Source of the DNA: Chrysomallon squamiferum | Taxonomy: Eukaryota > Animalia > Mollusca | Assembly: GCA_012295275.1 (NCBI GenBank) | Contig: CM022667.1 | Span: 14,012,001-14,076,000, forward strand | Direction: 5' to 3' | DNA length: 64,000 nucleotides | In this document: positions 1,654-47,513 of the stretch, piece by piece | Layout of the letters: the number at the start of each line of letters is the position of its first letter | Position numbering within the stretch: position 1 is the stretch's first letter | Program-made: the position numbers and the translations under genes | The notes under the pieces: model-generated | What the model was told of the DNA's origin: nothing | The model's input: only the letters and a program-made list of their open reading frames with translations | Databases searched by the model: none

Positions 1654-2248
1654 ATGAGATTATTGTTCGTTCTCTGCATTATGTTTGGTAAAATTTAATT
1701 TCTCATTATTGTCAAATCTCTTTCTTTCACACACACACACACACACACACACACACACACACACACACACACACACACAGACTGAATGTATGTCTTTATT
1801 TTTTTTTAAATGAATATTTATGGTCGTTTCAGTTTCATTTTCAGTAATATTATAGTTTAATGCTAATTCTTTCAAAATTTAATATTGAATGCTTTGACGT
1901 TTACTATAAAGGATGTAACAGAAATGTTTGGTAACTGTGTGTATGTGTGTGTGTGTGTGTGTGTGCGTGTGCGTTTTTGTTTTGTACGTATAACTGCGGA
2001 CAGATACCGGTACACGCACGCCTGACGCCAAATGTTCATATAACGTCAATAAGATTTTTACAAACTGGTAATTCTGTTACATGATATGTTCTAATGACAT
2101 TTTTGAAAAACTGCAGCTATAAAACATTGTTTATTTCAGTAACAATACACTCGGGATTTTGTAAATGTGATGTTCCGACAGTGAAAAATTGCATCCGTGA
2201 ATTCCTGAGGAAAAACACAGAACTGAAGAGAAAAGTGGAGAAATGCAG
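1654..2248 (+). pseudogene. Six-Cys GPI-type family, type A copy A1, exons 1-2 only (3' truncated)
   Basis: Exon 1 1654-1687 and exon 2 2140-2248 have intact GT/AG sites and encode MRLLFVLCIMFVTIHSGFCKCDVPTVKNCIREFLRKNTELKRKVEKC. Intron 2 homology to complete A copies stops near 2555, just before the exon 3 acceptor. Confidence 0.75.
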
Positions 2249-2677
2249 GTATGTTCGTACATAAATAAACTATAGTAGGTTTTTATTTATGCTTGTATTT
2301 ACTGATTGATTGATTGGTTGATTCATTCATTGATTTATTTATATATTTTTTATATATCATTTATTTATTTCGTAATTAATTGATTAGTATTGTTTTTGTA
2401 GATATTATACATATACTTATTATTTATATTTTGTTTACATATACATACATACATACATACATATATACACTTGAAAACAAAAATGTCATTCATTCGCACT
2501 CACCGTTATAAACCAAATGGTTTCATTTTTTTAACTCAATGTTTTTGTCGTATATAAAAAAAATAAAAATAAATAAATAATAAATAAATAAATAATTAAA
2601 ACTGAAACTAAACCTTAAATAAAATGTAATAAAATAAAATAAAATAAAATAAAATAAAATAAAATAAATATTTGGTG

Positions 2678-3050
2678 GTTCATGTTAATGCTGACGATTA
2701 TTAAGAATTAAGTGAACCCTACTATCAACTTGTTATAGAGAGGAAAATAAATACTACCTGCATTTCAAATGACAAGAACAGGCAATGGAAAGCAAGAGAA
2801 AAATCAGTTTTGTGAAGAATACTCTCTAAATAGTTTTTGAACATATAACAATTCAGACAAAAAAGAAGATTTTAAAACATTTTTGTATCTGTTATTGAAT
2901 TAATTTTATTGGATCAAGTGAACCTTAATACGAGCTTGCTATAGACAGATTTGGATGTGGATTCAAATAATATATTCGCGATCATCATTTTGAACAAATA
3001 GAATGAATCAACATTTAACAAAACGTCTGCGTCTAAACCTCAAGGACAGC
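2678..3050. pseudogene. Rearranged remnant of a family member: inverted intron-4 pieces fused to a frameshifted last exon
   Basis: 2678-2740 and 2912-2948 resemble 44972-45040 (intron 4 of minus-strand gene C). 2955-3001 is a plus-strand last exon with a 2-nt insertion (corrected: MWIQIIFAIIILNK*), followed by 3'UTR-like sequence. Repeated near 10915-11290. Confidence 0.6.
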
Positions 3051-43489: not shown

Positions 43490-44440
43490 ATAGGTACCTC
43501 TAGTTACTGTGTGTATGCTGGAAGCAGACGAATATACTGCTTGATGCAAAGTCCTAAAACACGTATGGCACTTGGGAACATATTAAACAACAGCATATGT
43601 TTGTTATCAAACACTGTGTTATATCCCAGATGTTCTGGCAATGATTTTATCTTGGAAGGAAACTGCAGAGACAGTTTTGTACTTCTAGCACGCACAGTTT
43701 CACGTGCATCGATGTACAGACTATCTGCAGTTATAGTACTAAATGCTCCAAGAGAGTCTAAGACCCTGGTTTTGTAGAGGATTCAGCATTTGTAAGTAAC
43801 ACCTACCAGAGAGAGGCCCCATACACAGTGCAAGCGTTTACATCTTATCGAAGACCTATAAAGTCGGAGCATGGCCTTTCGGTTTGCTCCCCATTTAATA
43901 CTGCCAATAACATTTAAAAGAGTGAAGGAGTTTAAGGCCTTTAGGATGCAGTACAAAGGGTAACTTCCTGTCAAATATAACGTTCACAAATTTGGCCTCT
44001 TCCACAATAGGACAGAATATGTCCAGAAACATATTTATATGGAGACCTGTTTTCTAGCAGATATAAATACTGACTGTCTTTGTCTTTTGTAATCTAAAGC
44101 TGTTTTCAGTTGCCCATTACTGAAGTTTATTCAGACCAATTTGAAGCTGTCATTCGATAATACTTACGTTGAACGATCTTTAGCAAATCTGAAAATCGTC
44201 GACATAAGGTTTTAATTAAAAAAAAAAAAAAAAAACATTATGCACAGGTTGCACCCATTTCTTGCGGGTTGGAATCTGAAAATGTAGATCCAACACTTTA
44301 AAAGATCTGTCTTAAAAAACATCTTTAAAAATAGGAAGGCCACCTCATAGATCATGAGCCTTGGAGTCAATAAGCCCATACTTCCATATAGTGTCGTAAG
44401 CTTTATTCAAATCAGAAAACACTGAAACTAGGTGTCGACT
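43490..44440 (-). mobile_element. Decayed non-LTR retrotransposon (LINE) ORF2 fragment
   Basis: Minus-strand pieces [20 protein letters not shown] (RT motif FFDLEKAYDTTW type), YVDDFQIC, and WGANRKAMLRLYRSSIR, with many stops and frameshifts. Confidence 0.8.
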
Positions 44441-44859
44441 AGGTGTCGGTGGGGCACCATGGAAGATTTTACAAATTGCTTATTTTCATTTTCAAGTCAA
44501 TTTAATGGATTATATGGCTACAATATGTTGACGAAAGCTACCTAAAGATCAGAATTAACAAAAGCTGACATTGTCAAATATTACCAAAATTATAACCCCA
44601 GAACATAATCAAATAATAATAATAATAATAAAAAAAACTATTACTTATTGAAAAGCTTTGTAAGGTTTTCACAATACACAATAACAAATGCTGATAAACA
44701 GCAACATTAATTTATTTTTAAAAAGAATATATGTCCAAATTTATAATTATAGAGAATAAGTTAATTACATTTATTTAGTTGTTAATAAAATAAAAATAAT
44801 TCTTTTTGTAAGGTCCTTAACGGCTTGGACACAGACGTTTTGCTGAAGGTCGATTCTGT

Positions 44860-47513
44860 CTATTTCTTTAAGATAACGAGCACGATCATTATTCCAATCC
44901 ACATCGAGAAGAGACATATATGTACCTGGTGTTCACCTGCAAAACAAACATTAAATCAGTTAATATACAGCTGTTCATGTTAATGCTGACGCTTGCTGAC
45001 GATCAAGTGAACTTTAATATCAGCTTGCTATAGATAGAAAAGCCAGCACTACAGGCATGTCTAGGATAGACAATGGATATAAAGAGAAATATTAGACGTG
45101 TGATGTACCAGAATCTCTGCAACCCAACGTAATCAAGGTGGTATTGGCGTTCAGTATAACATGTTGAAAATTTCAAGAGACAGCAGTGTTTAATATACAA
45201 TTACCATAACTATGAGGATAACAAAACCAGTTTTAGAAAGAATCAAAGATGTTTTAAAAATATGTCGAGACATAATAATTGCTTTAAAAGCTTTTTTTTT
45301 TTTTTTTTTTTTTTTTTTTGACTGTTGGTCGTAAATGCAGTTATACTAATTTTGAGATGATTTATGCTGTCCATGTGAAAATTAATTTAAATAAATGTGA
45401 TCTAGTAGAGAAAAGGCTGGAAACCAGAGCTTTAACCAGTCGATTGAAATTGAAATTAGGAAACATCGAATGCAACATTTATAACCCAACTGTTCCGATT
45501 ATGCACAAGGGAAATCGCACAAGCAGATACAACAAGAGCAGCAACAGCAGCAACAACAACAACAACAACAACAAAAACAACAATATTAATAATAATAATA
45601 TGTTTTTCAATACAAAATTATTTTTATAAACAGGTTGACAGTTTCTCGATTTTACTATTATGTCATCATTTATCATTATTAAGATTCTTGAAAGACAAGA
45701 ATAATTAGGAAGTAAACTTAATATACCTAGCTGACTTGTATATACAAGCAATGATAAGCTTTAAACCTATTCATAGACAACACTGTAACTTTTCATACAT
45801 AAAAACTATTCTGCAGCTAATACATGTAAAACATACCTTTACTCGACATCATAGAGATTTCGTCACCTCCTGCAATATTATTAGAAATTTATTACATATA
45901 TACATACTTGCAAACTCGCACACTCACGCACACAGTAATAGTATCATTAAACATATTACAGTTATCAAAGGCTGGTGTTCTGGTCAAATGTTAGGCTAAA
46001 CGTCTGGATTTTCTTGAAAGTCGTCTGCTATGAATTTAAACATTTTCATAGCTGAATTTTATTAAAGTTTTCATAACAATCTTCCCACAGAGACACTGAC
46101 AGAAGAAGTCACTGTGTACTGTTATGCTGTGTAAAATTGAAAGGTTTGCCTTATGGTATATTAATTTAAAGACTTTTGCTTTTTAAGCAGAAGTCTCTTT
46201 TGCAACATTTGTCTTGGAATGGAATAGCTATTTAATATTTTGCGCAAAATCATGTGGATTCGTATACTAAATCAGTGGAAACACTGTGTATATGTACAAA
46301 CATACCGCAGACACTAAACACGAAATGTTTCAGTTGTTTAAATTTATTTTTCGTCCTTTCATCATCTTCATCTTCAGAACAGGATGCTTTTACTAAACAG
46401 ACGAACAATTTATTTGAGTAACTGAAAGATAAGACTTATTTTCATTATTTATTTAACAACAGAAACATCAAGTTCATGAAATATAATTTTGGATTAAAGT
46501 AAAAACAAATAAGTGTGCTAATGTACGTATGAATGTATGTATTTGTATATGGTTTTATGTGTTTGTGTATGAACATTTTCATGATTTGCGAGCGTGTGAA
46601 AACGAACACCCCCCACACACACACACATACACACACACCTACGCAACAATAATTAAGTAAAATAAGCAAAATTTATCTGGAAGGTCTGAGATCAAGGATG
46701 ACTCTAATTTCAGGATCTTCTGGTTTTCCGGACAAAGTCTTAACAATTTTATTTAAACTATAATGCACAATCGTATCTAAATTTAAAGCCATTTTTTCTT
46801 TTTTTTTAATTTCCCTAATGCTGAACGGACATATTCTGGAACGTGTACGATAAAATAACAGAAAATATATAAATAATTTTTGAATTGGCAAATAAATAAA
46901 TAAATAAATAAATAAATAAATAAAAATAAATAAATAGAAGTAATTAAAAGTATTAAATTGAGTGATTTTGGTGCAAACTTACAAACATCGATTTGAGATG
47001 TGTAAAGAATTTGTATTTACATCCTGTTGAAAAGATTCCTGGCACCTGTTTACAGTTTCTTCATCACAATTTCCACAAAAAGCCAAGTTTATTGTTACTG
47101 AAATTGGCAAAAATGACGCTAGAACTGTGGAGTCCAGAAAATTCGATAAGCATATTTATATCATCTAATTAGAATTGTTACTGATATTATCAACTGAATG
47201 TGTGTGTGTGTGTGTGTTTTAACTGTACGTCAACACATTTGATACAAATGATAAGAATCAGGATACAATTATATTACAATCATTGAAATTATAAACTTAA
47301 CAGTTAGAATTAGAATTTTATATTGCATAAACTGGAAAGTAGATTTCATTAGTCTGTTGAGAATAATTGCTCGCTATATCACCACAGTACTTTGATTCTG
47401 CTGTTTGATAAAATATAATGTCACGGAAATGTAACTGTGTGTGTTTATGTTTAAAAGTAATACAAGAATAATACTTTACCTGAGAAAATACAGAGAGCGA
47501 ACAGATACTTCAT
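44860..47513 (-). CDS. Six-Cys GPI-type protein, divergent inverted type C (124 aa)
   Basis: Minus-strand exons 47513-47480, 47097-46983, 46421-46306, 45869-45837, 44936-44860, with the same phases 1-2-1-1: MKYLFALCIFSVTINLAFCGNCDEETVNRCQESFQQDVNTNSLHISNRCFYSNKLFVCLVKASCSEDEDDERTKNKFKQLKHFVFSVCGGDEISMMSSKGEHQVHICLFSMWIGIMIVLVILKK*. Confidence 0.87.

Follow-up and report, generated by a model that had tools for sequence, protein, structure and literature searches.

A tandem array of five-exon genes for six-cysteine, putatively GPI-anchored small proteins in Chrysomallon squamiferum

Ly6/uPAR clusters consist of tandem, fast-evolving genes with small exons, coding for small, disulfide-braced proteins held by a glycosylphosphatidylinositol (GPI) anchor. 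They offer a functional analogy to the system described here, a tandem array of five-exon genes for six-cysteine proteins in Chrysomallon squamiferum (assembly GCA_012295275.1, contig CM022667.1, forward-strand positions 14,012,001 to 14,076,000; this whole stretch of 64,000 nucleotides is hereafter the window). Ly6/uPAR proteins are beta-rich, with 8-10 cysteines and a terminal CN motif, whereas the array products display six cysteines, are predicted to be helical and fall outside the three-finger definition. A helical six-cysteine scaffold is encountered in family DUF19 (T20D4.11-like, PF01579), whose members are usually longer and two-domain. DUF19 and the array share small cysteine-rich products and family expansion, without any match from single exons. 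Members of DUF19 are secreted, are expanded in C. elegans and include a 19-kDa oyster protein (excerpts of PMC3527274, PMC10058639 and bioRxiv 10.1101/2022.03.10.483751).

Two other families are closer in layout. In neuritin/CPG15 (NRN1, PF15056), as is predicted for the array, a single small ectodomain lies between a leader and a GPI tail, the mature part being 88 amino acids (aa) long as against about 75 here. Cysteine spacing is 7-17-8-5-20 in the array and would be about 9-24-8-7-27 in neuritin, Cys3-x8-Cys4 then being common to both. The phase-1 intron in the leader and the phase-2 intron just after Cys3, both present in the array, may have counterparts in neuritin. Neuritin has two introns fewer, the two extra ones of the array separating domain, stalk and tail. 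According to excerpts of PMC10123642, neuritin comprises a 27-residue leader, a mature part (residues 28-115) that is nearly invariant among mammals and for which Cys83 is given in print, and a GPI tail that is removed; it is activity-induced and shed (excerpts of PMC6502786). In contrast, the array proteins are multi-copy and fast-evolving, with shorter loops, and no single-exon sequence matched neuritin. In the N-domain of RGM/hemojuvelin (PF06535), three helices are joined by three disulfides, and the loop linking helix 2 to helix 3 carries RGD/RGN (excerpts of PMC7354924). The helices predicted here from exon fragments recall this arrangement, and the part that binds ligands in RGM, the helix 2-helix 3 linker with helix 3, is the most variable one in the domain of our type B genes. 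RGMs are GPI-anchored and their N-domain cysteine spacing is about 4-22-8-7-21. The array proteins (120-124 aa) are not RGMs, since RGD/RGN occurs in none of the eight and the C-terminal neogenin-binding domain is absent. Kinship with neuritin or the RGM N-domain is unproven.

The tandem array is real. Exon copies were located by BLAST and nhmmer with exon templates, yielding 11 copies of exon 1 and 11 of intact exon 2 in the window, while exons 3, 4 and 5 each occurred intact eight times. They compose eight intact gene models, all open, with GT-AG introns and five coding exons each (genes are named below by their first coordinate or, for the last one, by its type):

5212-7009, plus strand: intact type A gene, exons 5212-5245, 5625-5733, 6023-6129, 6374-6409, 6933-7009; 120 aa
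13446-15234, plus strand: intact type A gene, exons 13446-13479, 13862-13970, 14256-14362, 14583-14618, 15158-15234
18877-20636, plus strand: intact type B gene, exons 18877-18910, 19338-19446, 19768-19874, 20088-20123, 20560-20636
26198-27994, plus strand: intact type A gene, possibly allelic to 13446, exons 26198-26231, 26610-26718, 27004-27110, 27344-27379, 27918-27994
31333-33128, plus strand: intact type B gene, possibly allelic to 18877, exons 31333-31366, 31794-31902, 32220-32326, 32565-32600, 33052-33128
36589-38394, plus strand: intact and spliced type B gene, exons 36589-36622, 37050-37158, 37493-37599, 37843-37878, 38318-38394
40596-42456, plus strand: intact type B gene, likely expressed, exons 40596-40629, 41063-41171, 41507-41613, 41894-41929, 42380-42456
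44860-47513, minus strand: intact type C gene, the most divergent, exons 47513-47480, 47097-46983, 46421-46306, 45869-45837, 44936-44860; 124 aa

This agrees with the initial annotation, made from the sequence alone, which had proposed eight complete five-exon genes (seven on the plus strand, one on the minus strand) with common intron phases and a six-cysteine domain. Phases are 1-2-1-1 in all eight, and cysteine spacing is 7-17-8-5-20 in seven and 7-18-8-5-23 in type C. The array was said to start at 1654, which is the start of a partial copy (exons 1-2) and not of a complete gene. Coding exons measure 34/109/107/36/77 nt in the seven plus-strand genes and 34/115/116/33/77 nt in type C, i.e. 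differences of +6, +9 and -3 nt. When exon ends were allowed to lie up to 6 bases from those of the templates, each plus-strand gene had a sole open GT-AG combination; type C had many, and the model chosen was the one agreeing with paralog exon ends. A degenerate 24-nt pattern for exon 5 matched exactly eight times in the window (0.00 expected, 100 shuffles). Between types A, B and C, indels occurred only in multiples of three, and the six cysteines, reading frames and phases were kept at 14-36% domain identity. Diversity was smaller than the eight genes first implied: they encode only five distinct proteins, domain identity reaching 97-98% among the three type A genes and 98% for 18877/31333, and two genes may be allelic.

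Indeed, two blocks of about 12.5 kb (12444-25004 and 25205-37345), differing by 0.4-4.3% per kb, flank a gap of 200 N. As they meet exactly at this gap, a false haplotype duplication is possible, in which case 26198 would be an allele of 13446, and 31333 one of 18877. A real recent duplication is also plausible, since an ungapped tandem of 8.3 kb (1441-9711/9716-17955) is equally alike (0.3-2.5%). A safe gene count is six to eight.

An element of about 700 bp was observed upstream of each B unit (38960-39680, 1-644, 8893-9628, 17145-17879, 22522-23256, 29631-30361 and 34996-35705). It occurred in many variants and at a contig depth of up to about 115,000 in sequencing run X3, as against less than 2,000 for the gene; no terminal inverted repeat was found in it. 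It is likely a high-copy mobile repeat, which could seed unequal crossing-over.

A signal peptide, small residues at the attachment site (omega) and at omega+2, a polar spacer and a hydrophobic tail form the established layout of GPI-anchored proteins. Rule-based examination recovered this layout in all eight products, in line with what had been claimed for their signal peptides and tails. Signal peptides displayed a hydrophobic core (9-residue mean Kyte-Doolittle value of 2.4-2.8), and relative to a cut after residue 19 the residues at -3 and -1 were small. The omega residue was Ser and omega+2 Gly or Ala, with 26 residues following omega: a polar spacer, then an uncharged run of 17-21 residues and no cytoplasmic domain. 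Signal cleavage is accordingly predicted after residue 19 and GPI attachment, itself a rule-based prediction, at Ser94, or at Ser98 in type C, so that the mature part would measure about 75 aa. The stalk that follows Cys6 is about 10 residues long; its initial list of motifs (HSKG/HSRA/SSKG) omitted RSKG, found in 36589 and 40596. In two paralogs that were met in RNA and lie beyond the window, S/G-K-G was also read by eye at the omega place. Arg-Arg precedes the tail in seven genes and is absent in C. B domains are cationic (K+R 15-17 versus D+E 9-10), A domains near neutral and the C domain acidic. AlphaFold2 models of single exons displayed helices at residues 11-24 and 26-34 of exon 2 and 2-12 and 24-32 of exon 3, with a predicted local distance difference test (pLDDT) score of 67-68, and 14 of the 15 segments had a helical moment larger than their strand moment. 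Folded as two chains, the exon-2 and exon-3 peptides scored 0.02. The single-exon models point to three helices, the first one long and the other two shorter, which three disulfides would hold together.

In the tail exon (38318-38394 and paralogs), Glu-His-Gln and seven further tail residues were invariant in all eight genes, an unusual conservation for a GPI signal, which could stem from gene conversion or reflect a particular role in sorting.

Expression was examined in three RNA runs of one study (X1, X2 and X4) and in X3, of unrecorded kind. Contigs, not reads, were aligned to 36400-40100 (type B gene 36589 and its surroundings) at 82% likeness, and 15 of 99 joints were listed. X1 and X2 contigs covered all five exon bins, and both contained joints 37158->37493 (intron 2) and 37599->37843 (intron 3), with GT-AG ends; X1 depth was zero in six intron-only bins. 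Splicing, for which a check by spliced reads had been proposed, was thus found for B-type introns 2 and 3 in two of the three RNA runs, at the level of contigs; introns 1 and 4 of the window genes were absent among the 15 of 99 joints listed. X3 covered introns, and neither joint was among those listed for it. In X4, exon-2 and exon-5 bins were uncovered and exon 3 little covered, though contigs cannot show absence. Over exon 3, X2 record 9 displayed no difference from 36589 and record 10 seven, the number separating 40596 from 36589, while X1 contigs carried an exon-2 letter of the 18877 subtype or of the partial B copies. Loose contig ends joined family exons to an exon 1 and exon-4 ends foreign to the window, which indicates further paralogs elsewhere. 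Contigs of X1 also delineated a leader exon:

36300-36340, plus strand: 3' end of the B-type 5' non-coding exon (donor 36341, acceptor before 36580)

The same donor precedes six B copies. The family is real, expressed and uncharacterised; its function we can only infer.

A paired motif, which we take to be a cAMP-response element (CRE)/ATF-like one, was found upstream of ten copies, type C included:

36241-36263, plus strand: paired CRE/ATF-like motif; also at 1280, 5020, 13251, 18417, 23873, 26006, 30891 and 40226, and for C at 48243-48260 on the minus strand

These are the only ten matches in the window (0.00 expected), and they represent only three independent types (A, B and C). The observed/expected CpG ratio is 0.8-1.2 across the first 42 kb, as compared with 0.0-0.4 for the body of the neighbouring SLC6 gene (see below). 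In invertebrates, a contrast of that kind is typical of inducible, tissue-restricted genes.

The domain diverged faster than signal, tail and introns, in line with the diversifying cluster proposed initially. Domain identity was 28-36% between A and B and 14-20% between C and the others, as compared with 63-74% (signal) and 54-79% (tail) between types. In each of the six pairs between subtypes, non-synonymous divergence of the domain was 2.4-4.0 times that of introns (Fisher p between 0.0026 and 2.5e-19); three near-identical pairs displayed no such excess. For 36589/40596, exons 2 and 3 differed at 18 of 216 sites and introns 1 and 2 at 9 of 505 (p 6e-5). Among B genes, the predicted helix 2-helix 3 linker and helix 3 varied at 12 of 24 sites, versus 11 of 40 elsewhere in the domain. 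The three distinct B genes were also mosaic (134 sites in 55 runs, permutation p 5e-5): exons 3-4 of 36589 grouped with those of 40596, its exon 5 with that of 18877. Positive selection on the domain is suggested, though not shown, by the divergence values.

Several observations weigh against such selection. Intron divergence was counted in ungapped, unmasked blocks only, and the pairs are not independent. Relative to synonymous sites, the B-clade omega was 1.64 (p 0.21, not significant), and dN was below dS between C and A/B. Exon synonymous sites evolved 1.7 times faster than introns, so that homogenisation of introns or a bias in mutation may account for part of the excess. Among B genes, variability peaks in the stalk (8 of 10 sites), which relaxed constraint explains equally well.

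All homology queries were single exons of at most 44 aa, and the following negatives are weak for that reason. Exon-alignment searches, which covered proteins of 77-2000 aa, gave 61 and 1360 candidates, not one of which reached E<=10. Two exon-query searches of the ESM Atlas gave no usable match, one PDB sequence search with exons gave none and another three chance matches (E 0.76-1.1). A Pfam scan of 16 single-exon queries (35-44 aa) revealed no NRN1, RGM_N or DUF19 match. Fold searches with the exon-3 model reached E 3.6 and Z 3.3 at best, metagenome scans 0 loci and Rfam 0 matches. The family was first described as unrecognised, which holds for sequence searches (single exons of 35-43 aa); in layout, it does resemble neuritin and the RGM N-domain. 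In full-text literature searches, none of the titles and abstract openings listed described the family of the array; two exon-5 peptide motifs were absent from four supplements of PMC11871041 (one scanned file being unsearchable), and the parts of PMC11871041 and PMC12559170 consulted contained nothing on the family.

Further candidates were discarded. A 35-position exon-3 profile (HMMER, 1.84 billion representatives) matched only a 1668-aa tandem-repeat open reading frame, considered spurious; the sole Pfam hits, NOB1 and CDC37 with exon 2 of type C, lay below the cut-off and were rejected.

The explanation we favour, tentatively and at somewhat less than an even chance, is that the array forms an inducible, diversifying, microbe-facing repertoire of GPI-anchored surface proteins. 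A basic leucine zipper (bZIP)/CRE switch would turn the genes on through the CRE-like pair; the product would be secreted, cut at Ser94 and anchored, presenting a small, rigid, variable helical surface to a changing outside ligand. Duplication and unequal crossing-over would reshuffle exons and renew the repertoire, and cleavage of the anchor would release the protein in soluble form. The recognition role is suggested by the evolutionary pattern; the weakest step is to take the ligand as microbial, from pathogens or symbionts. Microbes are favoured because of paralog turnover, mosaicism, the unmethylated locus and the inducible-type promoter, all typical of defence families. The metatranscriptomic label of the X1 and X2 libraries gives only a faint hint of a microbial context. 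Besides the points raised above on selection, this explanation has to contend with an omega+1 residue (Lys or Arg) bulkier than is usual in GPI signals, with the small number of distinct proteins and with the common origin of both supporting RNA runs.

An unlikely alternative is that these are activity-induced GPI proteins of neuritin or RGM type, serving as ligands or co-receptors in signalling through receptors of the animal itself, in neurite growth or bone morphogenetic protein (BMP) modulation. The leader/mature/GPI-tail layout is that of neuritin (PMC10123642, in part), activity-dependent induction and shedding (PMC6502786, in part) would fit the CRE-like motif, and the RGM N-domain provides three helices with three disulfides (PMC7354924, in part). 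Yet RGD/RGN is absent from all eight proteins, single exons gave no Pfam NRN1 or RGM_N match (a weak test), and the array domain diverges faster than introns where neuritin, in the parts of the source consulted, is near-invariant in mammals.

Gastropod peptide families combine conserved signals and introns with hypervariable mature exons, and it is conceivable, though improbable, that the array encodes antimicrobial, pheromone- or toxin-like effectors, secreted or tail-anchored and released at Arg-Arg instead of being GPI-anchored. The cationic B domains and the Arg-Arg preceding seven of eight tails would suit them, but C lacks Arg-Arg and is acidic, A is near neutral, and the omega Ser, omega+2 residue and 26-residue distance are fixed in all eight. 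Gamete-surface or self/non-self (allorecognition) proteins appear quite improbable as well: small, fast-diverging GPI proteins are common on gametes and the array domain diverges likewise, but paralog turnover, mosaicism and the inducible-type promoter seem to fit defence better. It is very doubtful that a dispensable gene is changing in copy number in a mostly neutral way, with uncollapsed haplotypes inflating the count and divergence due to relaxed constraint: dN/dS not significantly above 1, near-identical 12.5-kb blocks around the gap, the same high-copy repeat in seven units and many partial copies speak for this reading, but cysteines, frames and phases were kept despite low domain identity, with indels in multiples of three, the genes are expressed and spliced, and the upstream motif persists in A, B and C.

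The microbe-facing reading could be carried further, into a proposal that is unlikely to hold: molluscs may have recruited the three-helix module of neuritin and RGM-N for a recognition repertoire that is variable, inducible and displayed on GPI anchors, and that in this snail would be renewed by exon reshuffling and would screen bacteria, possibly symbionts. Neuritin would then have relatives among invertebrates that share an intron with it, and molluscs would possess a class of receptors not described so far. Known variable recognition molecules of molluscs are mostly lectin-, C1q- or immunoglobulin-based; a repertoire of helical GPI mini-proteins would add a class, missed by annotation because its exons measure 33-116 nt, with members small enough for direct expression and testing. 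Should both fold and intron link to neuritin hold, the array would bear on the origin of a vertebrate plasticity protein; should the link fail, it would be one more lineage-specific surface array, as is common in animal genomes.

Partial and decayed copies accompany the intact genes:

1654-2248, plus strand: partial B copy with intact exons 1-2, devoid of exons 3-5 (exon-template searches)
9932-10498, plus strand: partial B copy, exons 1-2 intact, without upstream motif and exons 3-5 (exon-template searches)
24229-24817, plus strand: partial B copy, exons 1-2, followed by the N gap 25005-25204 (exon-template searches)
7800-7910, plus strand: decayed intron-1/exon-2 remnant with an in-frame stop; four further copies near 16065, 21475, 28770 and 33940
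42896-43416, minus strand: decayed C-like remnant, exon-3 region (nhmmer/reading)
2678-2949 and 10916-11187, inverted: C-like intron-4 remnants (nhmmer/reading)

The many pseudogenes announced by the initial annotation thus amount to three B copies that are partial, one of them being interrupted by the gap, together with five exon-2 remnants in decay and three inverted C-like remnants. Three of the five exon-2 remnants were detected by nhmmer at E<0.01, and all five were confirmed by reading the sequence. The partial B copies lie directly upstream of intact A genes; as they end in phase 2 and exon 3 of the A genes starts in phase 2, an in-frame chimeric B/A splice is possible.

The window is microsatellite-rich, with a GC content of 25-38% and one 200-N gap (25005-25204). 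Beyond the array, one further gene was found:

about 60756-50290, minus strand: SLC6 sodium/chloride-dependent transporter gene in 13 pieces, glycine-transporter-like by best matches

One of its exons matched five proteins, all gastropod, the best being a glycine-transporter-like protein of Gigantopelta aegis (84%); whole-protein tblastn gave 527/751 identities for the latter and 456/721 for Haliotis. The source animal of the window is thus likely a gastropod closer to Gigantopelta than to those of the four remaining matches. The 3' body of the gene is CpG-depleted, which is consistent with gene-body methylation, and one of its introns contains a minisatellite (54351-55194) whose unit measures about 21 bp. 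Finally, a 167-bp element, likely a young short repeat, occurred at 44273-44439 and 50896-51062 in opposite orientations, both copies being 97% identical.

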